Source: a virus (taxonomy: Duplodnaviria > Heunggongvirae > Uroviricota > Caudoviricetes). Taken from it: a stretch of DNA of 19,254 nucleotides. The notes below the pieces were generated by a model, which saw only the letters and a list, made by a program, of their open reading frames with translations, did no database searches and had not been told where the DNA came from. Within the stretch, counting starts at the first letter, position 1. Each line of letters starts with the position of its first letter. Made by a program: the position numbers and the translations under genes. The DNA is taken from IMG/VR virus record IMGVR_UViG_3300023371_000071. The stretch is one strand, 5' to 3'. Shown here one piece after another: positions 371 through 18,104 of this stretch.

Positions 371-408
371 GAAATGCAGGATGACTCCACACATCCTGCA
401 TTTCTTTT
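371..408 (+). terminator. intrinsic terminator
   Basis: 13-bp stem GAAATGCAGGATG/CATCCTGCATTTC then TTTT. Confidence 0.8.
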
Positions 409-417
409 CCCTCTGGC

Positions 418-464
418 CGGCTGGTGCACGGGCGCCAAGTCTGTGCACCAGCCGTATTCCCGCA
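418..464. repeat. GC-rich hairpin + TTCCCGC element, copy a
   Basis: Stem 418-429/443-454, CGGGCG at the loop, TATTCCCGCA tail. Confidence 0.65.
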
Positions 465-504
465 CGCATAGGCCATGCATAATTATTCATCGACAATGCA
501 TAAA

Positions 505-770
505 CATACAAAAACAAGCCCCATCCCAAAACAGAGCCACTCTCGTCTTCGCTTGCGCGGGCGGAATTTCACCGCCGTGGATGTATGGGGTGGAGTGATC
601 GCGTAGGCTAGGGGGACGATTTGAACGTCTCTTCTACTTGCGTAGCGTGCTAACCGAGCTGACACTACCCGTTCGCCGCGATCTGGAAGCTCTTGATACC
701 TGCGAGAGTTTTGCCACCGAGTAATCGCGAATCCTCAGTGCCCGTAGTGGTTGTGCTTCCCTCAACCTCT
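505..770 (-). ncRNA. putative structured ncRNA containing a tRNA-like (D-arm/T-arm) module at 607-674; ends approximate
   Basis: Own consensus promoter at 777-805 (-), no RBS-led ORF, several hairpins, U8-A9, 4-bp D stem, TTCAAAT T loop, closing helix 597-603/677-683, weak GU-rich stem and T-rich tract near 505-538. Confidence 0.65.
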
Positions 771-776
771 GATAGT

Positions 777-805
777 ATTATACTACAAGAGGGATCAAAT
801 GTCAA
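777..805 (-). promoter_or_regulatory. sigma70/sigmaA promoter (leftward)
   Basis: Minus strand TTGACA(805-800)-17-TATAAT(782-777), A-tract upstream. Confidence 0.85.
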
Positions 806-850
806 TACCTTTTTGCAGAAAAAGAAAAAAAAGTTTTTTTCAAAAACCTA

Positions 851-879
851 TTGACATTCCTGCCCACCTATGCTATAAT
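851..879 (+). promoter_or_regulatory. sigmaA promoter P1
   Basis: TTGACA-17-TATAAT, TATG extended -10, A/T UP-like tract. Confidence 0.9.
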
Positions 880-915
880 AGTCTCAGTTGGTGAGGGAAA
901 CACCGACAAGACAAA

Positions 916-1506
916 ATGACAAAGGTGGTAATCACAATGAATGCACTGGAACTGATGGATCTCTACTACGACCGCATGTGCGCTTGCACTTCCACTTCTG
1001 GACGCAACAACAACTTCAAAAAGATGCTTGCTCTGTGGGAAGAAAATGAAGTTGTTCGTGCGGTTTGGACTTTTGTCAAGGATGCCTATTTCATCGTTGA
1101 TCGGTTTGTCAAGGGCGTTGTTGACAAGGTAAAGTCTTTCTTTAAGCCGACCGCAAACGTGGTTTACTCCTGCGACAAGGTAGAGGGCAATCAGCTTGTG
1201 TATCTCCTGCGGCTGCTTAATGAAGAGGGCAATCTGGTTTGGTCAAAGGTCGGCACGACCACCCGAACCATTGAAGAACGCATGAGCGAACACCTGCGCT
1301 ACTATCGCAAGTATGGTATCAAAACGATCGAAGTTACTAAAGTTTGGGATTGCGGAGAAGTTGACGCAGAAGGTTTGGAAAGTTTCCTGCGTTCCAAGTA
1401 CATCCGCAAGCATCCGAACACTTTCCAGAAAAATGATCGTTTCTATCAAGTTGAGTTTGATCTGGAACAGGCTGAAAAGTGGGTTGACTTCTATCTGAAC
1501 GATTGA
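916..1506 (+). CDS. GIY-YIG superfamily nuclease-like protein
   Basis: C-terminal VYLLRL...KVGTT.RTIEERMSEH...E..LR pattern matches the GIY-YIG core (Y, G, R, H, E). Confidence 0.65.
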   Translation: MTKVVITMNALELMDLYYDRMCACTSTSGRNNNFKKMLALWEENEVVRAVWTFVKDAYFIVDRFVKGVVDKVKSFFKPTANVVYSCDKVEGNQLVYLLRLLNEEGNLVWSKVGTTTRTIEERMSEHLRYYRKYGIKTIEVTKVWDCGEVDAEGLESFLRSKYIRKHPNTFQKNDRFYQVEFDLEQAEKWVDFYLND

Positions 1507-1537
1507 AAAAAAAGTTTGTCAAGGGCGTAAAAACCCC

Positions 1538-1566
1538 TTGACAAACAGCCCAAGATGCTGTATAAT
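1538..1566 (+). promoter_or_regulatory. sigmaA promoter P2
   Basis: TTGACA-17-TATAAT; -35 lies in right arm of a 12-bp inverted repeat 1514-1525/1535-1546. Confidence 0.9.
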
Positions 1567-1591
1567 AGTTAATGTAAAGGAGGTCAAGAAC

Positions 1592-1996
1592 ATGGCTAAG
1601 GAACTTCAGTATCCTACCCCTGAGTGGTTGGACGCCATGGTCGATAAGACTGGTTGCTCACTGGAAGAAGCCGAAATGGCATGGTGGGACAAGCAGATCG
1701 ACAAGGGCAACCCTACCCCATGGGACTTGCCACCCGAGCAAGAGAAGGAAGCACGCAAGGCGAACCGACCCAAGGCTCACAAGGTGGTTGACCCTGCAGG
1801 CAAGACCCGAACCCGAGAACGCAAGCCCAACGAGGACAAGCGACTATTGGTGGACTGCCTGCACGACGCATTGAAGGACTTTGACAACTGCGAGGTTGTC
1901 AACCCCGAGCGTCAAGTGGACTTTGTGCTGAACGGCGTTTCCTATTCGGTTACGCTGACCGCCCACCGACCCCCCAAGGACAAGGGGAAGGGCTGA
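1592..1996 (+). CDS. hypothetical protein, family B (paralogue of 8404-8877)
   Basis: AAGGAGGT RBS before ATG 1592; shared RERKPNE.KR.L, VNPER and YSVTLT.HR.PK motifs. Confidence 0.85.
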   Translation: MAKELQYPTPEWLDAMVDKTGCSLEEAEMAWWDKQIDKGNPTPWDLPPEQEKEARKANRPKAHKVVDPAGKTRTRERKPNEDKRLLVDCLHDALKDFDNCEVVNPERQVDFVLNGVSYSVTLTAHRPPKDKGKG

Positions 1997-2047
1997 TACC
2001 CTTCCCCAAGCCCCGAAAAAAAACTTGAAAAAAGTTTCAAAAAGGGC

Positions 2048-2076
2048 TTGACAAACCGACCGACCTGTGGTATACT
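2048..2076 (+). promoter_or_regulatory. sigmaA promoter P3
   Basis: TTGACA-17-TATACT, TGTG extended -10. Confidence 0.85.
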
Positions 2077-2147
2077 TAAGATGTTCCAAGGGAAGGAACA
2101 AAACAAAACGACAGCGCCAAGAGCGCGGAAAGAAAGAGGTAATCGCT

Positions 2148-2516
2148 ATGACTACTATCAATGTGAAGAATGAGAAGCTGACCTACGTGACCGCCCTGAC
2201 CTACGCCATTGAGAACGGCAACCTGCCCACCGAGATCGCGGAAAAGCTGATTGCCCTGCGTACTCAGCAGGAGAAGCGTAACAGCGGTGAGAAGAAGCCG
2301 ACCAAGGTTCAGGAAGCCAACGTTGGCATCAAGCAGGTTATCCTGACTGCCCTTGAGGGTCAGGAAGCCAAGACCGTAAGCGAGATTCAGACCCTTGCTC
2401 CCGAGCTGGGCGAGCTGAGCAATCAGAAGGTTGCAAGCCTTGTCCGTCAGCTTGTGGAAGAGGGCAAGCTGACCCGAATCGAGGAGAAGCGCAAGGCGTA
2501 TTTCCGCCTTGCCTGA
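2148..2516 (+). CDS. winged-helix domain protein, family A copy 1
   Basis: AGAAAGAGGT RBS; C-terminal TVSEI..LSNQKVASLVRQLVEEGKLTRIEEKRKAYF helix-turn-helix plus beta-wing pattern. Confidence 0.8.
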   Translation: MTTINVKNEKLTYVTALTYAIENGNLPTEIAEKLIALRTQQEKRNSGEKKPTKVQEANVGIKQVILTALEGQEAKTVSEIQTLAPELGELSNQKVASLVRQLVEEGKLTRIEEKRKAYFRLA

Positions 2517-2563
2517 CCCTCGCGGGGTGGTGAAAAAAACTTTCACCACCCCGAAAAAACCCC

Positions 2564-2592
2564 TTGACAACCTGCCTATCCTGTGCTATAAT
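2564..2592 (+). promoter_or_regulatory. sigmaA promoter P4
   Basis: TTGACA-17-TATAAT, TGTG extended -10. Confidence 0.9.
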
Positions 2593-2637
2593 AGTATCAA
2601 CGAAAGGGCAAGAGCCCGAACAACGAGGAGGATCCCC

Positions 2638-2895
2638 ATGAAGAACACCATCGCTGCCACCCTGATCGCCAACTACGGTTTCGAAGCCCAGTCCAACTGC
2701 CTGTTCACTGGCAAGGGCTCTTGGCTGGCCTCTCACGAGACCGTCAAGGTCACCTTCCACGGTGACATGGTCACCATCGACCACTACCGCTTCTTCTGGG
2801 ATGGCGGTGATGTGGAGTGGGAACGCTCCACGGTGGTCACCTGCCACCTCTCCCGACTGTGGGAGAACCTCCCCGAGTGGGTGCTCAGAGCCTGA
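2638..2895 (+). CDS. hypothetical protein (85 aa)
   Basis: GAGGAGG RBS before ATG 2638; the longer ORF call runs through promoter P4. Confidence 0.8.
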   Translation: MKNTIAATLIANYGFEAQSNCLFTGKGSWLASHETVKVTFHGDMVTIDHYRFFWDGGDVEWERSTVVTCHLSRLWENLPEWVLRA

Positions 2896-2911
2896 GCCCC
2901 ACTCTTTTTTT
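2875..2911 (+). terminator. intrinsic terminator overlapping stop codon
   Basis: GAGTGGG-T-GCTCAG/CTGAGC-CCCACTC then T7. Confidence 0.8.
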
Positions 2912-2917
2912 ATTCGC

Positions 2918-2965
2918 CGGCGCGTGGGCGGGCGCTGCGCTTGCCCACTCGCCGAATTTCCGCGA
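2918..2965. repeat. GC-rich hairpin + TTTCCGC element, copy b
   Basis: Stem CGGCG.GTGGGC/GCCCAC.CGCCG, CGGGCG at the loop, AATTTCCGCGA tail. Confidence 0.65.
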
Positions 2966-3013
2966 GGAGCACCAGCCAGCAAAAAATAATTTGAAAAACT
3001 TGCAAAAAAGGTA

Positions 3014-3042
3014 TTGACAAATCATCCCGAATCTGCTATAAT
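3014..3042 (+). promoter_or_regulatory. sigmaA promoter P5
   Basis: TTGACA-17-TATAAT. Confidence 0.9.
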
Positions 3043-3092
3043 TAAACCATCGAAAGGGAACACAGAGTCCCAACAGAAAGGAAGTTACTACT

Positions 3093-3344
3093 ATGATGAC
3101 TGCCAAAGAAGCTAAGACCATGACCACCAACTACCTGACCGCCGAAGCTGACAAGCACCTGCAGAAGATTGAAGACACCATTCAGATCTATGCCAGCAAG
3201 GGCAACACCTCCATGTATTACAGCAATGGTCTCAGCGGTGCCGACCCTCGCATCCAGTCCAAGGTATACAACACTATGGTTGAAGCAGGTTACAAGGTTC
3301 GTTGGTGTGAATCCAGCCTGCACATCAGCTGGGCAGATGCCTAA
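3093..3344 (+). CDS. small hypothetical protein, family C (TAxE...A.KG...GYKV...ISW)
   Basis: AAAGGAAG RBS; motif shared with 17301-17645, 18427-18840 and repeats in 13187-14878. Confidence 0.8.
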   Translation: MMTAKEAKTMTTNYLTAEADKHLQKIEDTIQIYASKGNTSMYYSNGLSGADPRIQSKVYNTMVEAGYKVRWCESSLHISWADA

Positions 3345-3363
3345 AAAAAGTTGCTCAGAGGGG

Positions 3364-3392
3364 TTGACAAATCCCTCTGAGCATGGTATAAT
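3364..3392 (+). promoter_or_regulatory. sigmaA promoter P6
   Basis: TTGACA-17-TATAAT; -35 in loop of inverted repeat 3352-3362/3373-3383. Confidence 0.9.
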
Positions 3393-3429
3393 AAGTACAT
3401 CAAAAGGAACAAGAAAGGAAGTAACTACA

Positions 3430-3768
3430 ATGACTAAGAAGATTTCTCTGAATGACTGGACCTACATCGGCAAGTACAATCCTGCGGCCAAGTGGCTTCG
3501 TCCCCTCTGCTCCTACTCTCTGACCGAAGCTGGTGCCTATTCTGCAGATGGCAACCCCGACTATCGCCGCGATTGCAAGATTAGCTGGCCTGTGTATCTG
3601 CTCCTGTTCCTGCCTGTGCATCTACTTCAGTTGCTGGTGTGCCTGTGGGATGGCGGCTTGAAAGAATTTGAAATTGCAAGTCGCCACATTGGGCATGATT
3701 ACATCACTGCACATGGCGACAACAGCGGACGCTATCAGATGGCAAAAGAAATTTGGGAAAAGGCTTGA
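3430..3768 (+). CDS. hypothetical protein with one hydrophobic segment (112 aa)
   Basis: AAAGGAAGT RBS before ATG 3430; WPVYLLLFLPVHLLQLLVCLW; its TGA lies within the TTGACA of P7. Confidence 0.8.
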   Translation: MTKKISLNDWTYIGKYNPAAKWLRPLCSYSLTEAGAYSADGNPDYRRDCKISWPVYLLLFLPVHLLQLLVCLWDGGLKEFEIASRHIGHDYITAHGDNSGRYQMAKEIWEKA

Positions 3769-3793
3769 CAAAGCCTTTCCCCTGTGGTATAAT
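3765..3793 (+). promoter_or_regulatory. sigmaA promoter P7
   Basis: TTGACA-17-TATAAT, TGTG; inverted repeat AAAGGCTT-GACA-AAGCCTTT. Confidence 0.9.
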
Positions 3794-3821
3794 AAATGTA
3801 TCAAATGAAGGAGTGATAAAC

Positions 3822-3995
3822 ATGGGTATCATGATCGGTGCTATTGTTGCAAGTCAGACCGCTATGAGAGTGGCGGCAATGAATGCCATGAAAAAAAATC
3901 TGGAAAATCAGAAAAAAGCTGTTGACAAACAGCCCAAAGTGTGCTATACTAATAATGTCGAAAGGGACAACAGAAAGGAAGGTAAACAAAAATGA
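3822..3995 (+). CDS. short ORF (57 aa) whose second half reads through promoter P8
   Basis: AAGGAG RBS before ATG 3822, downstream of P7; stop overlaps next start (ATGA). Confidence 0.5.
   Translation: MGIMIGAIVASQTAMRVAAMNAMKKNLENQKKAVDKQPKVCYTNNVERDNRKEGKQK
3922..3950 (+). promoter_or_regulatory. sigmaA promoter P8
   Basis: TTGACA-17-TATACT, TGTG; inverted repeat GCTGTT-GACA-AACAGC. Confidence 0.85.
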
Positions 3996-4306
3996 TGAAG
4001 ATCGAAATGACCAAACACGCTATGGTAGACCGCATTGACCGCTGTGTGTACATTGCACAGAAGATTGGCTTCGGTGACAAGATTGTGTGCGAAGGTTTCC
4101 GCAGAGACAAGGGCACTCGGCAGTGCCTGTCCGAAACTGGTGTGCTGATTGTCAAGATGCCGGAAAGCGAAACCATGGTGACTGCTTACATTCCCACTCT
4201 TGAACAGGCTGGCATGATTTACAAGTCCGCAGGCTTGCACATGCCGAACTGGATGGCACAGAAAATCAAGAAGAATCAGAAGTATGCAAAGGGCTGTCCT
4301 GTGTGA
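3992..4306 (+). CDS. hypothetical protein (104 aa)
   Basis: AAAGGAAGGT RBS, own promoter, stop inside a 14-bp hairpin 4285-4318. Confidence 0.85.
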   Translation: MMKIEMTKHAMVDRIDRCVYIAQKIGFGDKIVCEGFRRDKGTRQCLSETGVLIVKMPESETMVTAYIPTLEQAGMIYKSAGLHMPNWMAQKIKKNQKYAKGCPV

Positions 4307-4341
4307 CAGCCCTTTGCAAGAAAAAAATTTTCAAAAAGGTA

Positions 4342-4370
4342 TTGACAACCTGCCGAACCTATGGTATAAT
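4342..4370 (+). promoter_or_regulatory. sigmaA promoter P9
   Basis: TTGACA-17-TATAAT, TATG extended -10. Confidence 0.9.
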
Positions 4371-4402
4371 AAGTACAACGAAAGACGAAAGGAAGTAACA
4401 CA

Positions 4403-4876
4403 ATGAACACTCTGCTTCTCACCTTCATCCTGCTGAACATCGCCAATGTTATCATTCAGACCGTCAAGAGCATTGCAACCATCAAATGCGGAAAAGGGGT
4501 CGCCGCGATTGTTAACGCTGTTGCCTTCGGACTCTACACTGTGGTCACTGTCTACATGATGTGCGATTTGCCTCTTGCCACCAAGGCGCTGATTGTCGCA
4601 GGCTGTAACCTTGTGGGTGTGTATGTGGTCAAGTATTTTGAAGAAAAGGCAAGAAAAGACAAACTCTGGAAAGTCGAAGTCACCATTCCTGCCGAACAAG
4701 CAGAACAGATGATTGAAGATTGCAAATACTATGGATTCACTTACAACTATGTGAACATCGAAAAGTATTTCTTGTTTAACTTCTATTGTCCCACTCAGCA
4801 GGACAGTCTGAATGTTAAGAAACTGTTACAGAGCTATGATGCAAAATACTTTGTGACTGAAAGCAAAAATTTGTGA
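4403..4876 (+). CDS. membrane protein resembling UPF0316 (DUF5698/DUF2179) family
   Basis: Three hydrophobic segments (IANVIIQTVKSIATI; AAIVNAVAFGLYTV; AGCNLVGVYV) plus a soluble alpha/beta C-terminal domain. Confidence 0.6.
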   Translation: MNTLLLTFILLNIANVIIQTVKSIATIKCGKGVAAIVNAVAFGLYTVVTVYMMCDLPLATKALIVAGCNLVGVYVVKYFEEKARKDKLWKVEVTIPAEQAEQMIEDCKYYGFTYNYVNIEKYFLFNFYCPTQQDSLNVKKLLQSYDAKYFVTESKNL

Positions 4877-4884
4877 GAAAGGGG

Positions 4885-4913
4885 TTGACAACCCCTCTCA
4901 CATGTGGTATAAT
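4885..4913 (+). promoter_or_regulatory. sigmaA promoter P10
   Basis: TTGACA-17-TATAAT, TGTG; -35 centred in inverted repeat 4872-4902. Confidence 0.9.
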
Positions 4914-4943
4914 AAGTACATCAAAAGGAAAGAGGTAATGAAC

Positions 4944-5216
4944 ATGAGAGCAACTGGTATTGTAAGAAGAGTCGATGAACTGGGTCGCATTGTTATCCCC
5001 AAGGAAATCCGCAGGAACCTGAACATCAAAGAGGGCGATCCCCTTGAGATGTATCTGGACAAGGAATACGGGCTTGTGATGAAGCCCTACCATGAAGAGC
5101 ATCTGAGCTTTGACCGCCTGCAGTCTGAGTGGGAAAGCCTGAGCACCGCAAAGCGGCAGGAACTGATCTGCGAAATGGTGAACCACCTCGATGACCCCAT
5201 CCGCTGTGAAGAGTGA
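4944..5216 (+). CDS. AbrB/SpoVT-family DNA-binding domain protein (N-terminal domain only)
   Basis: MRATGIVRRVDELGRIVIPKEIRRNLNIKEGDPLEMY matches the SpoVT/AbrB swapped-hairpin signature; AGAGGT RBS 7 nt before ATG 4944. Confidence 0.9.
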   Translation: MRATGIVRRVDELGRIVIPKEIRRNLNIKEGDPLEMYLDKEYGLVMKPYHEEHLSFDRLQSEWESLSTAKRQELICEMVNHLDDPIRCEE

Positions 5217-5236
5217 CCGCAAGGTCACTCTTTTTT
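5211..5236 (+). terminator. intrinsic terminator
   Basis: GAGTGACC-GCAA-GGTCACTC then T run. Confidence 0.85.
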
Positions 5237-5276
5237 CGCCCGCGCGCCCACGAGCGTGGGCGCCGGTTTTCCCGCG
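5237..5276. repeat. GC-rich hairpin + TTTCCCGC element, copy c
   Basis: Stem 5244-5251/5256-5263, TTTTCCCGCG tail; CGGGCG present on the opposite strand at 5237-5242. Confidence 0.55.
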
Positions 5277-5285
5277 TATCCTTCC

Positions 5286-5314
5286 ATTATACCATTTTTC
5301 GAGCAATTTGTCAA
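5286..5314 (-). promoter_or_regulatory. sigmaA promoter (leftward, antisense to AbrB-like gene)
   Basis: Minus strand TTGACA(5314-5309)-17-TATAAT(5291-5286) with TG extension. Confidence 0.8.
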
Positions 5315-5362
5315 TAGGCAAACTGCACAAACTTTTTCCCGAAACTTTGTGCAATCTGTCAA

Positions 5363-5391
5363 TAGACATTTGGGGTCTGATACTGTATAAT
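5363..5391 (+). promoter_or_regulatory. sigmaA promoter P11
   Basis: TAGACA-17-TATAAT followed by the AGATAATGTC start context seen at P14. Confidence 0.75.
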
Positions 5392-5472
5392 AGATAATGT
5401 CAGGAGGGCACTGAGGTGATGCCGAGTGAAGCTGGTCGACAAAACTTCTTCAAAAAAAGTTTTGAAAAACCC

Positions 5473-5501
5473 TTGACAAAGCCGCCAAGATGTGATATAC
5501 T
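5473..5501 (+). promoter_or_regulatory. sigmaA promoter P12
   Basis: TTGACA-17-TATACT, TGTG. Confidence 0.85.
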
Positions 5502-5593
5502 GATAGTGTCAAGAGGGCAAGGAACTGCAAGAGGAACCCTTCGGCGCTGAAGCGCACAGGATAAAAACTCAAAAAAAAAGTTTCAAAAACCCC

Positions 5594-5622
5594 TTGACAA
5601 ACACCGCAAGGTGTGGTACAAT
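5594..5622 (+). promoter_or_regulatory. sigmaA promoter P13
   Basis: TTGACA-17-TACAAT, TGTG. Confidence 0.85.
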
Positions 5623-5703
5623 AAGGATGTCGAAAGGGCAAGGCGCCAGCCCCACTCGACAGTCACTAACACCAATCGACAAGAAAGAAAGAGGTAATGA
5701 ATC

Positions 5704-6057
5704 ATGGAAAAGATGACTTATGTGAAGGCTCTGGAAGTTGCTCTGAACTGCGAAGCTCTGTCTGCCGAAGTGCGTGAGAAGCTGTCTGCTCTGCGTGACC
5801 AGCAGGTCAAGCGTAACTCTGCGGAGAAGAAGCCCACCAAGACCCAGCAGGCGAATGAGGGCGTGAAGTCCCATGTGCTGGAAGTGCTGGCTTCCTGCGC
5901 CCAGCCTGTGACTGTGTCTGAACTGATGCAGGCTGATGAAGAGCTGTCCCAGCTCTCCAATCAGAAGGTCGCTTCGCTGGTTCGCCAGCTGGTGGAAGCT
6001 GGCAAGGTTCAGCGACTGGAAGAGAAGCGCAAGGCTTACTTCACTCTGGTGAAGTGA
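5704..6057 (+). CDS. winged-helix domain protein, family A copy 2
   Basis: AGAAAGAGGT RBS; KKPTK.Q.ANEG.K and LSNQKVASLVRQLVEAGK...EEKRKAYF motifs. Confidence 0.85.
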   Translation: MEKMTYVKALEVALNCEALSAEVREKLSALRDQQVKRNSAEKKPTKTQQANEGVKSHVLEVLASCAQPVTVSELMQADEELSQLSNQKVASLVRQLVEAGKVQRLEEKRKAYFTLVK

Positions 6058-6117
6058 CCTTGCGGGGCAGGGGTAAAACCCTGCCCCATCTTCCCGAAAA
6101 AAAGTTTCAAAAAGGTA

Positions 6118-6146
6118 TTGACAAACAGCCCAACATCTGCTATAAT
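6118..6146 (+). promoter_or_regulatory. sigmaA promoter P14
   Basis: TTGACA-17-TATAAT. Confidence 0.9.
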
Positions 6147-6190
6147 AGATAATGTCGAAAGGCAATAGAACAAGAAAGAGGTAATGCAAA

Positions 6191-6847
6191 ATGAATCGCC
6201 ACTTCTACATTCTGATGGATACTGAAACTGCCAACGGTCTGGATTGCCCCATCAACTACAATACCGCATGGTCTGTAATTGACCAGCACGGCAACACCTA
6301 CGAAAACTTCAATTTCATCAACCGCGACATTTTCTTTGACCGTCCCGAACTCATGCAGTCCGCATACTACGCCCACAAGATTCCGCAGTATCTTGAACAG
6401 ATTGAACGCGGCGAAATCAAGGTTGCAACGTGGTACGAAATCCGCAAGGCGTTCCGCGACTGTTGCGAAAAGTACAACATCAAGGCAGTTATCGCCCACA
6501 ATGCCCGATTCGACTATCGCTCCTGCACGATGACCCAGCGTTACGAAACCTGCTCCAAGTATCGCTACTTCTTCCCGAAGGGCGTTGAAATTTGGGACAC
6601 GCTGGCAATGGCTCGTGATGTGGTCGCCCCGATGCCCACTTACCGCAAGTGGTGCGAAACCAACGGTTTCACCTTGAAGAACGGACAGCCCCGACTGACC
6701 GCCGAAATCCTGTTCCGCTTCATCTCCAAGGACATTGACTTTGTGGAAGAACACAAGGCAATGGAAGATGTGAACATCGAAAAGGAAATCTTTTGGTACT
6801 GCATCCGCAAGCACAAGGCAATGCGTCGAAAGGCTTTCAAGGACTGA
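6191..6847 (+). CDS. DEDDh (DnaQ/RNase T-like) 3'-5' exonuclease
   Basis: Exo I MDTETA, Exo II AHNARFD, WDTLAMA, Exo III HKAMEDV. Confidence 0.9.
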   Translation: MNRHFYILMDTETANGLDCPINYNTAWSVIDQHGNTYENFNFINRDIFFDRPELMQSAYYAHKIPQYLEQIERGEIKVATWYEIRKAFRDCCEKYNIKAVIAHNARFDYRSCTMTQRYETCSKYRYFFPKGVEIWDTLAMARDVVAPMPTYRKWCETNGFTLKNGQPRLTAEILFRFISKDIDFVEEHKAMEDVNIEKEIFWYCIRKHKAMRRKAFKD

Positions 6848-6855
6848 AAAAGTCC

Positions 6856-6884
6856 TTGACAGCCGCCCCAAAGTGTGATATAAT
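6856..6884 (+). promoter_or_regulatory. sigmaA promoter P15
   Basis: TTGACA-17-TATAAT, TGTG; inverted repeat TCAAGGACT/AGTCCTTGA spans upstream stop and -35. Confidence 0.9.
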
Positions 6885-6909
6885 AAGTACATCAAAAGGA
6901 AAGAGGTAA

Positions 6910-7152
6910 TTGACCATGACTCAGTTTCAGTATGAAGTAAATGTTTACGAAGAAGACCACGTCCTGTCCTGCAAGACCAACAATCCCCGCACCGCCTGCC
7001 AGTTTATGCTGGATCATGCCGACTGCTATCTTGATGTCATCAACGGTTTTACTGGTGAAGTGCTCGCTGTGATGAACCATGAGAATGCTTACTGTCAAGA
7101 GGATTTCGGGCTGATGCTTCTCGGCTATATGACCGAAACAATTTGGGGCTGA
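6910..7152 (+). CDS. hypothetical acidic protein (start TTG 6910 or ATG 6916)
   Basis: AGAGGT RBS, own promoter, terminator follows. Confidence 0.8.
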   Translation: MTMTQFQYEVNVYEEDHVLSCKTNNPRTACQFMLDHADCYLDVINGFTGEVLAVMNHENAYCQEDFGLMLLGYMTETIWG

Positions 7153-7178
7153 CCCTTCGGGGTTGGCTCTTTTCTTTT
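7146..7178 (+). terminator. intrinsic terminator
   Basis: GGGCTGACCC-TTCG-GGGTTGGCTC (UUCG loop) then TTTTCTTTT. Confidence 0.85.
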
Positions 7179-7181
7179 GAG

Positions 7182-7218
7182 CCGGTCGTGCGCGGGCCAC
7201 ACGACCGGTTTTTCCGCA
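7182..7218. repeat. GC-rich hairpin + TTTCCGC element, copy d
   Basis: Stem CCGGTCGTG/CACGACCGG, CGGGC loop, TTTTTCCGCA tail. Confidence 0.65.
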
Positions 7219-7267
7219 ATGGGCAGATCTACCAAGAAATTCGCTGAAAATTTGTGCATTTTGCCAA

Positions 7268-7296
7268 TAGACATTTTATCCCGAAAGTGGTATACT
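7268..7296 (+). promoter_or_regulatory. sigmaA promoter P16
   Basis: TAGACA-17-TATACT with TG; context homologous to P11. Confidence 0.75.
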
Positions 7297-7388
7297 AATA
7301 ATGTCAGGAGGGGAGGCCAAGAAACCGAGAGGCGGCCGACTCTCAGGAAGTAGAGGAAGAAAACTTGAAAAAAAGTTTCCGAAACCTC

Positions 7389-7417
7389 TTGACAAACCAC
7401 TGACCCTGTGGTATAAT
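7389..7417 (+). promoter_or_regulatory. sigmaA promoter P17
   Basis: TTGACA-17-TATAAT, TGTG. Confidence 0.9.
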
Positions 7418-7421
7418 AAGG

Positions 7422-7518
7422 GTGTCAGGTGAGGGAAGCAACTGACAGTCGCTTAGCCAAGGTAGCCTGCGGAGTGGGTGCGCAACACTCCATGGTTAGA
7501 CCCTGTGCAAGCGAAGCG
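7422..7518 (+). ncRNA. putative ~95-nt structured RNA between P17 and P18
   Basis: No RBS-led ORF; stems TGTCAG/CTGACA, CGCTT/AAGCG, TAGCCA/TGGTTA, GGAGTG/CACTCC. Confidence 0.45.
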
Positions 7519-7540
7519 AAAAAAAAGTTTGCGAAACCCC

Positions 7541-7569
7541 TTGACAAACAACTGAATAGGTGCTATAAT
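7541..7569 (+). promoter_or_regulatory. sigmaA promoter P18
   Basis: TTGACA-17-TATAAT with TG. Confidence 0.9.
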
Positions 7570-7614
7570 AAGAGTGTCCTAAGGGACAAGACAAAAAGAA
7601 AGAGGTAATGAATC

Positions 7615-8022
7615 ATGATGAAGTTCACTAAGAAGGTTGCTCTGGAAGTCGCTATCAATGCTATCGAGAACTCCACCCTGCCCAACTGGTCTTTCACTGA
7701 GGGCGAGGAAACCCTGACCATCTCCAAAGCGGAAGCCATCGAGAAGCTCCAGAAGATGATTGAGCAGTTGGAGGCTAAGTCCAACGCTCCCAAGAAGCCC
7801 ACTAAGGTGCAGGAAGCCAACGAGGGTGTCAAGGACATCATCAAGGCTGTGCTGGAAGGTCAGTCCCCCATGACTGTCTCCGAAATCATGACCCACTCTG
7901 CGGAACTGAGTGCCCTGTCCAACCAGAAGGTCGCCTCTCTGGTGCGCCAGATGGTCGAGGCTGGCGTGCTGGTTCGCACTGAGGAAAAGCGCAAGGCTTT
8001 CTTCGCCCTCGCTCAGGGCTGA
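7615..8022 (+). CDS. winged-helix domain protein, family A copy 3
   Basis: AGAAAGAGGT RBS; KKPTKVQEANEGVK and LSNQKVASLVRQMVEAG..EEKRKAFF motifs. Confidence 0.85.
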   Translation: MMKFTKKVALEVAINAIENSTLPNWSFTEGEETLTISKAEAIEKLQKMIEQLEAKSNAPKKPTKVQEANEGVKDIIKAVLEGQSPMTVSEIMTHSAELSALSNQKVASLVRQMVEAGVLVRTEEKRKAFFALAQG

Positions 8023-8026
8023 GCCT

Positions 8027-8052
8027 GAGACCCCGAAAGGGGTCTCTTTTTC
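8027..8052 (+). terminator. intrinsic terminator
   Basis: GAGACCCC-GAAA-GGGGTCTC then T run. Confidence 0.9.
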
Positions 8053-8057
8053 TTGGG

Positions 8058-8094
8058 CTGCTCGCGGACGGGCGCCGCGAGCAGTTTTCCGCGA
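8058..8094. repeat. GC-rich hairpin + TTTCCGC element, copy e
   Basis: Perfect 10-bp stem CTGCTCGCGG/CCGCGAGCAG, loop ACGGGCG, TTTTCCGCGA tail. Confidence 0.7.
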
Positions 8095-8143
8095 TACACT
8101 AGACCCACCGAAAAATTTTCTTGAAAAATCGGCATTTTAGGGG

Positions 8144-8172
8144 TTGACAGATTATCCCGAATCTGATATAAT
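8144..8172 (+). promoter_or_regulatory. sigmaA promoter P19
   Basis: TTGACA-17-TATAAT with TG; spacer nearly identical to P5. Confidence 0.9.
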
Positions 8173-8199
8173 AGAACCATCGAAAGGAGCTGATCTGAA

Positions 8200-8340
8200 A
8201 TGTTCACCTGTCCTGCACTCTGTATCCTTGGTCTGGTTCTCTCTATGTGGGGATTCATCTGGGGTATCTTCTTCCAGGAATTCCTGTGGCTGTGTGTAGC
8301 TGGTTTTGCGCTGGGCTGGATGTTTTCTAAAGATTGTTGA
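8200..8340 (+). CDS. 46-aa membrane micro-protein (not in ORF track)
   Basis: AAAGGAG RBS; MFTCPALCILGLVLSMWGFIWGIFFQEFLWLCVAGFALGWMFSKDC; fills the P19-P20 interval. Confidence 0.75.
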   Translation: MFTCPALCILGLVLSMWGFIWGIFFQEFLWLCVAGFALGWMFSKDC

Positions 8341-8349
8341 AATTAGGGG

Positions 8350-8378
8350 TTGACAAACTGCCCCAACTGTGTTATAAT
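8350..8378 (+). promoter_or_regulatory. sigmaA promoter P20
   Basis: TTGACA-17-TATAAT, TGTG. Confidence 0.9.
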
Positions 8379-8403
8379 AATAATGTCGAAAGGAGCTGAT
8401 AGC

Positions 8404-8877
8404 ATGGAGTTCAAGGAAGCTATCAAGGCTTACGCTAAAATGATGGGCGTAAGCGAATCGGAAGCGAAGCAGGATGCCGAAGCTACCATCAAAATGTGGA
8501 TGACCACCGAAGGCATGACAAGGGAATTTGCGGAAGCCAGCTGGATTGAAGAGCAGGAAGATGCAGACCCCGAATTGCTGAAACAGATGGAAAAGCAGGC
8601 GAAGGAATCTGGCGCAACAAAGGTCAAGGCAAAGCGTGCCCCGAATTACAGTCTGGAAGGACAGAAAAAGCGGGAACGCAAGCCCAACGAAGAAAAGCGT
8701 TCACTGATTGAACAAATCGCCAATGCAATGGAAAGTTTTCATCACATGGATGAAGAAATTCCTGCTTCTGGTGTGGATTTGGTCGAAATTGTGAATCCTG
8801 AACGAGAAATCACCTTCAAAATTGGTGAAAATTGCTACAGTGTGACCCTTACCTGCCATCGCAAGCCGAAAAAATGA
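8404..8877 (+). CDS. hypothetical protein, family B (paralogue of 1592-1996)
   Basis: AAAGGAG RBS before ATG 8404; RERKPNEEKRSL, VNPERE, YSVTLTCHRKPKK. Confidence 0.85.
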   Translation: MEFKEAIKAYAKMMGVSESEAKQDAEATIKMWMTTEGMTREFAEASWIEEQEDADPELLKQMEKQAKESGATKVKAKRAPNYSLEGQKKRERKPNEEKRSLIEQIANAMESFHHMDEEIPASGVDLVEIVNPEREITFKIGENCYSVTLTCHRKPKK

Positions 8878-8880
8878 CAA

Positions 8881-8906
8881 AATGGGCGAGAAATCGCCCA
8901 TTTTTT
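8881..8906 (+). terminator. intrinsic terminator
   Basis: TGGGCGA-GAAA-TCGCCCA then T6. Confidence 0.85.
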
Positions 8907-8972
8907 GCTGTTTTTGTCCGGTTTTGTGCGGTTTTACTAGAAAAATCGCATAATTTTTGTTGATTTTGCCTA

Positions 8973-9001
8973 TTGACAAATGCGGCGGGCTGTGGTATAA
9001 T
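8973..9001 (+). promoter_or_regulatory. sigmaA promoter P21 (no downstream ORF)
   Basis: TTGACA-17-TATAAT, TGTG. Confidence 0.85.
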
Positions 9002-9023
9002 AATAGAGGGGAGTTGAGCGGGC

Positions 9024-9055
9024 CGGTCGCGGGCGATCCGGACCGAATTTCCCGA
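9024..9055. repeat. GC-rich hairpin + TTTCCCG element, copy f
   Basis: CGGTC/GACCG stem, CGGGCG in loop, AATTTCCCGA tail. Confidence 0.5.
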
Positions 9056-9286
9056 TCGGACCTGTATATGCAAATTTTTCTCTTGAATGCAACTATATGC
9101 AACTAATTACCTTGAATCCCGAAACCCCGGTCGGGCCCCGCCGATCGGATAACCGATCGGCTATCATATGCGCTCGTGCGCGGTGAAAGCGATTCCTCCA
9201 GCGCCTCACAAATCAATTCTCTCTGCCCCTCAGCGTAGATCGAACATACCCCGCGCGTTCTCTGGAACATGCATATGCTGCGGAAT

Positions 9287-9315
9287 TTGACAAATTGAAT
9301 TAAATATGATATAAT
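9287..9315 (+). promoter_or_regulatory. sigmaA promoter P22
   Basis: TTGACA-17-TATAAT, TATG. Confidence 0.85.
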
Positions 9316-9347
9316 ATTTAAAAAAGGCACCTCCGCCGACCGGGAAA

Positions 9348-9376
9348 TTGACAACATAATTTTTTTATGATATAAT
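9348..9376 (+). promoter_or_regulatory. sigmaA promoter P23
   Basis: TTGACA-17-TATAAT, TATG. Confidence 0.85.
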
Positions 9377-9429
9377 AAAAGTAGAAGGATATAGGCCGAC
9401 CGGAAAGTCGGCAACAAGAGGAAGGAGAT

Positions 9430-9458
9430 TTGACAAATAAACAAATATATGATATAAT
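9430..9458 (+). promoter_or_regulatory. sigmaA promoter P24
   Basis: TTGACA-17-TATAAT, TATG. Confidence 0.85.
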
Positions 9459-9674
9459 ACGGTGGGGCATATTTTTACCGATCGGTAATAGATCAAGAGG
9501 AGCAAGAGTAAAGAATAGCAAGTGGACGGGCTGGCATATGCGGCATAATATATTGAACTTAATTACGGACACGAGGACGGATAAATGAGTAGAGTAGTCT
9601 AGGCCCGATCGGGCCACCCCACTTCCAGAATTTTCCCAGTTTTTACAATTTTATCTATCCTCATCTTCTCTCCC

Positions 9675-9713
9675 TTGATTTTTATAAAAAAATTTGCTAT
9701 AATATATATGTAA
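9675..9713 (+). promoter_or_regulatory. class II promoter
   Basis: TTGATT-17-TATAAT then ATATATGTAA, as at 12239, 15691 and 18040. Confidence 0.8.
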
Positions 9714-9794
9714 AGAATGAGGGAATCGCTTCGCTCTTCCCTCTATCCAATCCTGGGGTCGCTCCCCAGTGAATATCGAAAGGAGACTCCTTAC

Positions 9795-15694: not shown

Positions 15695-15729
15695 TTTTTT
15701 TCAAAAAATATTATATAATATATATGTAA
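15691..15729 (+). promoter_or_regulatory. class II promoter
   Basis: TTGATT-17-TATAAT-ATATATGTAA. Confidence 0.8.
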
Positions 15730-15775
15730 GATTGAGAGAGGGAATAAAACCTCACTCGGAAAGGAGAAGTCGAAG

Positions 15776-18048: not shown

Positions 18049-18078
18049 TTGAAAAATTTTGATATAATATATATGTAA
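18040..18078 (+). promoter_or_regulatory. class II promoter
   Basis: TTGATT-17-TATAAT-ATATATGTAA with TG. Confidence 0.85.
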
Positions 18079-18104
18079 GGTTGAGAGAGAAAGGAAATGA
18101 TAAG

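Follow-up and report, generated by a model that had tools for sequence, protein, structure and literature searches.

The stretch of DNA analyzed here, referred to throughout as the window, comprises 19,254 nucleotides of a tailed phage (Caudoviricetes; IMG/VR record IMGVR_UViG_3300023371_000071) and corresponds to the reverse strand of positions 53197-72450 of a single virus record of 168,738 bases (168.7 kb), the completeness of which was estimated by CheckV at 88%. The element in question is a short, GC-rich hairpin that recurs at the borders of early gene blocks in this window. No DNA or protein match to the window was found in public phage records. Window positions 1 to approximately 9500, together with approximately 1300 bases upstream, form an early module set apart by its composition, with a G+C content of 44-56% versus 32-42% in the surroundings. 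The module contains about 25 full or near-full TTGACA-17-TATAAT promoters on a single strand, and its genes are small and in several cases paralogous, including a family of winged-helix paralogs. This layout is that of a host-takeover early region.

The hairpins were searched with a covariance model, R1, built from a gap-free alignment of 66 distinct 27-nt GC hairpins of other phages and containing no sequence of the window. The relatives were gathered through the winged-helix paralog family of the module, and their loci are labelled L001-L066. On both strands of the whole genome, R1 gave exactly seven matches (E 5e-11 to 5e-4; next match E = 2.7), all on the gene strand and within the GC-rich early module. 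An original prediction, made from the sequence alone, had described six such copies; since a model derived from other phages recovered all six plus a seventh, copy g, these are real members of one family. A plain hairpin scan additionally counted 13 hairpins of at least 8 pairs and at least 75% GC in the module, compared with about 0.9 in local shuffles. The copies are as follows.

Copy a, 418-464, plus strand: 37-nt hairpin at 418-454 and tail at 455-464; R1 match at 412-464 (E 2e-5); -32.7 kcal/mol; 13 nt after the terminator stem at 371-404.
Copy b, 2918-2964, plus strand: 37-nt hairpin at 2918-2954, then the tail; R1 match at 2912-2964 (E 5e-4); -30.2 kcal/mol.
Copy c, 5240-5276, plus strand: 27-nt hairpin at 5240-5266 with one bulged C, tail at 5267-5276; R1 match at 5234-5275 (E 6e-5); -21.2 kcal/mol.
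Copy d, 7182-7218, plus strand: 27-nt hairpin at 7182-7208, then the tail, with 5 T directly after the stem; R1 match at 7176-7218 (E 8e-11).
Copy e, 8058-8094, plus strand: 27-nt hairpin at 8058-8084, then the tail; R1 match at 8052-8094 (E 7e-9); -19.1 kcal/mol.
Copy f, 9019-9055, plus strand: 27-nt hairpin at 9019-9045 with 7 of 9 pairs formed, then the tail; R1 match at 9013-9055 (E 1.5e-7); the copy at the module exit.
Copy g, window -1486 to -1444 (L009:1445-1487, minus strand): the seventh copy, 1.45 kb upstream of the window; R1 match with E 5e-11.

The stems are nearly pure G+C and fold at -13 to -33 kcal/mol. At 37 nt, copies a and b exceed the usual family length of 27 by 10 nt, and copy f, which has two mismatched pairs, folds alone no better than shuffles. 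Copy g stands directly before the first early promoter, with no T-run terminator ahead of it.

Copies resembling those at the two ends of the module were also observed in relatives. An entry-type copy with g-like flanks is found at the left end of the module, and an exit-type copy like f closes the module in L035, L051, L001 and L056. In the window, copy f is followed at 9000-9700 by a non-coding junction with repeated CCGATCGG-type palindromes, CATATGC repeats and three more consensus promoters, and a junction of this kind also follows the exit-type copy in the same four loci.

The position of the elements relative to canonical terminators was then defined by the following features.

371-408, plus strand: canonical terminator before copy a.
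2880-2911, plus strand: canonical terminator before copy b.
5211-5236, plus strand: canonical terminator before copy c, containing the stop codon of an AbrB-like gene.
7145-7179, plus strand: canonical terminator before copy d.
8027-8054, plus strand: canonical terminator before copy e.
8879-8910, plus strand: terminator closing the last block, with the promoter 8973-9001 between it and copy f.

A gap of 9-17 nt separates copies a to e from the stem of the canonical terminator ahead of each, in agreement with the original prediction that the elements lie at block borders and are distinct from the terminators themselves. Copy f is preceded by the promoter 8973-9001 and not by a terminator. In an intrinsic terminator the U tract directly follows the stem, typically with at least 5 U in 8 positions. 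For the canonical terminators ahead of the elements, folding energies are -9 to -19.5 kcal/mol, and 5-7 of the 8 bases behind the stem are T. After the stems of the elements there are 3-5 T in 8, usually in a run of 4-5 nt of A/T only and then C or G; this A/T-only run is 4-5 nt long in five of the seven copies and was measured as 0 in c and 2 in g. The elements do possess the hairpin of an intrinsic terminator, being stable, GC-rich and located on the transcribed strand, and they were not picked up by a simple terminator scan.

The tail that follows each hairpin proved to be part of a larger unit. It had been described as an (A/T)TTTCC(C)GC motif, and a TTT after the stem is indeed nearly invariant in the family, but the motif is not free-standing: it opens a conserved spacer of about 90 nt that ends in the promoter of the next block, a feature that had gone unnoticed. 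Tail, spacer and promoter align as a single conserved cassette, which is also common to the nearest relative, L014. The distance from the hairpin to the next -35 box is exactly 59 nt in b, d and e, and 50-99 nt in most relatives. The corresponding features of the window are listed below.

2955-3042, plus strand: conserved spacer and block-initial promoter after copy b, 59 nt from hairpin to -35.
7209-7296, plus strand: conserved spacer and block-initial promoter after copy d, 59 nt.
8085-8172, plus strand: conserved spacer and block-initial promoter after copy e, 59 nt.
5286-5314, minus strand: consensus promoter pointing toward copy c, located within a 37-nt insertion in the cassette.

The repeated unit is thus hairpin-spacer-promoter, placed after gene blocks each of which is closed by an unrelated terminator of its own. 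That the hairpin belongs to the promoter cassette fits with copy g, because this copy stands before the first early promoter without a terminator. The promoters after the hairpins constitute a class of their own, with a conserved CCCGAA-containing spacer between -35 and -10 (3014-3042, 7245-7296, 8144-8172 and 5340-5391). Two of them, 7245-7296 after d and 5340-5391 after c, also have an upstream TTTGTGCA box, often palindromic in relatives, which looks like the operator of a regulator.

Other transcription signals were noted in these control regions. A minus-strand consensus promoter running from 805 to 777 is followed by about 260 nt without a convincing open reading frame (ORF) and by a terminator from 538 to 517, and L014 carries a minus-strand promoter in the place equivalent to 805-777. 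The interval 505-805 looks like a non-coding RNA gene on the minus strand, convergent with the block that ends at copy a. At 5392-5700 and 7297-7610, consensus promoters are followed by only 60-110 nt without ORFs up to the next promoter, and these two intervals are candidate small RNA units starting two of the blocks.

Searches of the relatives with R1 revealed 188 copies in 36 related loci, all 188 of them on the early-gene strand. Five whole related records (172-192 kb) were covered, and in each of them the matches formed one single-strand cluster of 10-14 kb. In the family consensus, a flank rich in T and closing with GG leads into a stem of 8-11 pairs, almost purely G/C; the loop spans 7-11 nt, and behind the stem come two A/T positions and then TTT. 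T occupies the third, fourth and fifth positions behind the stem in 60, 66 and 55 of the 66 copies, regardless of what lies beyond. The loop consensus is ACGG (C 82%, G 89%), of which the CGGGC(G) loop motif reported in the window is a local form; the opposite-strand CGGGC attributed to the loop of copy c lies in the outer stem or flank instead.

Pairing is kept while the stems differ, as had been proposed, and compensatory substitutions were found. All nine stem pairs vary on both sides, although the set was chosen for pairing and this count therefore overstates the case. In copies of relatives defined by their conserved flanks, which provide a less circular test, double compensatory changes numbered 34, shifts to wobble pairs 36, mismatch repairs 20 and breaks 32. 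The positional counterpart of copy b in L014, behind the same gene, likewise has differing stems. Two extensions of the fold were considered and discarded. Pairing of the GG ahead of the stem with the tail's CC, which would add an outer helix, occurred in 53% of cases versus 49% in shuffles, no better than in slid registers, and a pseudoknot between loop and tail had by eye at most 4 pairs, no consistent covariation and a linker of 3-5 nt, too short for a stem of 9-13 bp.

As a separate observation, many related contigs end within the early module, and in G002, a record classed as having direct terminal repeats, the hairpin cluster spans both record ends. Contig ends in the module could reflect either assembly breaks at the repeated cassettes or genome ends nearby.

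Altogether, we observe a hairpin family that is confined to the early module, keeps its orientation and its pairing through sequence change, and sits after terminators and at a fixed distance before promoters. We tentatively interpret the hairpin as a back-up intrinsic terminator or insulator of a self-contained promoter cassette, an interpretation that we regard as plausible and just short of probable, with termination itself being what we infer. The cassette would resemble the promoter-early stem-loop (PeSL) cassettes of T4-type phages, which are documented composite terminator/promoter cassettes (Arbiol et al. 2010, PMC2839356; Comeau et al. 2014, PMC4122927). A secondary terminator or insulator is the likeliest reading because each hairpin fronts a conserved hairpin-spacer-promoter cassette. 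A plain secondary terminator is also the outcome that the original prediction had itself named as refuting its more exotic roles, and from the sequence evidence it now appears most likely.

In the proposed mechanism, the boundary cassette would span about 120 nt and comprise the GC hairpin, the short A/T run, the conserved spacer and a block-initial promoter of the sigma-A type. Each early gene block would end in its own canonical terminator, and the cassette of the next block would bring a second, very stable hairpin with 4-5 A/T. Host RNA polymerase reading through the first terminator would transcribe this hairpin, and the RNA stem together with a weak A/U hybrid would release the polymerase, so that the promoter region of the next block, with its operator-like boxes and, in places, opposite-strand RNA genes, would be kept free of incoming transcription. 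A modular origin could account for the redundancy, with the gene block bringing its own terminator and the promoter cassette its own upstream stop. Several observations favour a back-up terminator. Between this phage and L014 the hairpin has persisted despite changes in its stems and without the antisense promoter found elsewhere in the family; directly beside its extremely stable stem is a weak A/U stretch whose conservation does not depend on what follows it; and it lies where one block has ended and the control region of the following block begins, a region that after copy a holds the convergent RNA gene.

Other observations weigh against this interpretation. The T run is short, with its 3-5 T in 8 often behind two A residues, and a short T run predicts modest termination. 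A strong terminator already stands ahead of five copies, and the conserved ACGG loop and near-fixed length of 27 nt are not needed for termination. The strict co-orientation with genes would follow trivially from linkage to the promoter. Wobble pairs were also compared by strand, and the 39 G.T versus 13 A.C pairs counted overall owe their excess to the innermost, doubtful pair and to other sequence contexts; the bias vanishes in the core stem (4 versus 3) and in the class of the window's type the counts were 7 versus 8. In about one third of the relatives' copies, a same-strand promoter ends 2-4 nt before the stem, so that here, as at copy f, a promoter fires straight into the hairpin. Finally, a plain terminator explains neither this arrangement nor the consensus antisense promoter that starts at the hairpin base in about 40% of the relatives' copies.

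These antisense promoters raise the alternative that the hairpin is the 5'-terminal stem of short antisense RNAs transcribed from the consensus promoter, with the promoter-less copies of this phage as leftovers, which we consider improbable. In 47 of 74 cases the minus-strand -10 box of the relatives and the stem are 7-8 nt apart, as such a role would suggest, and copy c keeps an antisense promoter. Within the window, however, an antisense promoter is present only at c, just as a same-strand upstream promoter is present only at f, and six of the seven copies of this phage are without one. Copy c is the same cassette with the 37-nt insertion, which places its antisense promoter about 12 nt further out than in relatives. 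Antisense promoters are absent at nearly all copies of this phage and of L014, promoter-less hairpins have been kept with altered stems between the two, and the promoter-less class is common in relatives. This phage retains the hairpin but almost never the antisense promoter, which shows that the hairpin is kept for its own sake.

The features superfluous for simple termination bear on a further alternative, in which the hairpin, as RNA or DNA, is a recognition site for a phage or host factor that controls the passage of polymerase over block borders and thereby times the early blocks. The asymmetric ACGG loop, the length of about 27 nt and the flanks are kept across diverged phages, and one of the winged-helix paralogs of the module or a regulator of the terminator/antiterminator type would be candidates for the factor. 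We regard this as possible but on balance unlikely, as no partner has been identified, the loops in the window's lineage range from 4 to 13 nt with the motif partly paired in some copies, and shared descent of the copies could explain the conservation. A more specific form, in which the hairpin is the docking site of a dedicated phage factor deciding between stop and passage at each early-block border, and the inward promoters of the relatives work together with it as RNA-polymerase roadblocks, is quite doubtful.

A role at the DNA level, with the element folded into a cruciform or into a hairpin in single-stranded DNA, is likewise improbable; the fold would serve as a topological or melting barrier near AT-rich promoters, as a genome-entry pause or as a protein-loading site. 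Perfect GC inverted repeats amid AT-rich sequence would suit such a role, as would the copies at the module entry (g) and exit (f), the latter abutting the palindrome-rich non-coding junction. Unpaired GC-rich centres of 7-11 bases, however, make cruciform extrusion costly. The orientation of the copies also strictly follows the direction of transcription, though promoter linkage could explain this as well.

The original prediction had also suggested recombination sites for cassette blocks, and a role of the hairpins in swapping or excising gene blocks is now highly improbable. Gene order differs between this phage and L014, yet the last gene of a block and its hairpin stay together, and the PeSL cassettes of T4-type phages have been linked to shuffling. 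A breakpoint was taken to be the end of any block in which relatives are at least 85% identical, and it was counted as being at a feature when within 40 nt of it. Only 4 of 415 (1%) were at hairpins, compared with 4% at random, whereas 42% were at ordinary early promoters, compared with 19% at random. Breakpoints thus avoid the hairpins and cluster at ordinary promoters. No empty site or presence-absence polymorphism was detected among 539 flank pairs, all of which keep a hairpin-length insert. No Y1 transposase (PF01797), integrase, resolvase or tyrosine recombinase was found in the 88%-complete genome record. Judged from these alignments, PeSL-like shuffling among the relatives takes place at ordinary promoters and not at the GC hairpins.

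The element was also compared with known classes of elements. Integron attC sites were rejected, as before, on the lack of R''/L''...L'/R' cores (RYYYAAC / GTTRRRY), on flanks that read T-rich and then GG upstream of the stem and A/T-rich downstream of it, and on the lack of a tyrosine recombinase. Repetitive extragenic palindromes (REP/BIME with RAYT) had also been dismissed previously, and the consensus indeed contains no GTAG and the genome no PF01797 match. Hairpin promoters of the N4 type have a 5-7-bp stem and a 3-nt loop and are used by a phage single-subunit RNA polymerase; they were rejected here because the stems are 8-16 bp and the loops mostly 7-11 nt. No PF00940 match to a T7-like single-subunit RNA polymerase was found in the genome, but control genomes gave none either. 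CRISPR repeats are identical units in an array, and a solitary-repeat RNA anti-CRISPR is a promoter-driven unit matching a host repeat; in the elements described here, the stems differ from copy to copy, neighbouring copies are 0.9-2.5 kb apart and separated by genes, and an adjacent antisense promoter is missing from six of the seven. The only Rfam match was a 19-bit minus-strand match overlapping copy a (E 0.51; gathering score 39).

If the element is a back-up terminator, its closest functional parallel would be a PeSL cassette joined to a tandem terminator. As in PeSL cassettes, a conserved stem-loop and a near-consensus early promoter of the host type form a unit that recurs between the small early genes of a large, lytic phage, with stems that vary by lineage. 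The likeness is one of layout, and no sequence similarity would be expected. Here, a nearly all-GC stem-loop of 27-37 nt with a conserved loop is found only at block borders, behind a separate canonical terminator and with about 60 nt between it and the promoter; the hosts are Firmicutes; and the association with breakpoints known from PeSL cassettes is found at the ordinary promoters of the module and not at the hairpins. In tandem intrinsic terminators, such as rrnB T1-T2 of E. coli, the second terminator catches read-through from the first. As would be the case here, two hairpin-plus-U signals stand in series after strongly transcribed units, but in this phage the U run of the second signal is weak, its loop is conserved and its length fixed, and it is inherited with the downstream promoter cassette and not with the upstream gene. 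A third comparison concerns the convergent-promoter control of helD and pps in B. subtilis (Sudzinova et al. 2026, PMC12802891). In relatives, a strong antisense promoter similarly faces a sense promoter at short range, but helD and pps have no GC hairpin between the promoters, and in this window the arrangement occurs only at copy c.

Outside the early module, a second conserved promoter-like motif, consisting of a -10 box followed by ATATATGTAAG, was observed before genes of the lower-GC half of the window (9690-9716, 15706-15735 and 18055-18088). This motif may be a middle-class promoter.

A limited literature search on tandem terminators and the early regions of recoded phages yielded no description of the element. 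It is strongly conserved across a broad clade of uncultivated phages of 120-200 kb from gut and rumen, where it appears to be a previously undescribed control signal of the host-takeover region. What this phage adds is the promoter-less variant, which narrows down what the whole cassette does. If the hairpin acts as a compact, strong insulator, it would be a candidate part for engineering Firmicutes. If it is instead controlled by a factor, it would represent a new way of timing phage early genes, a border-control device and not a passive back-up terminator.

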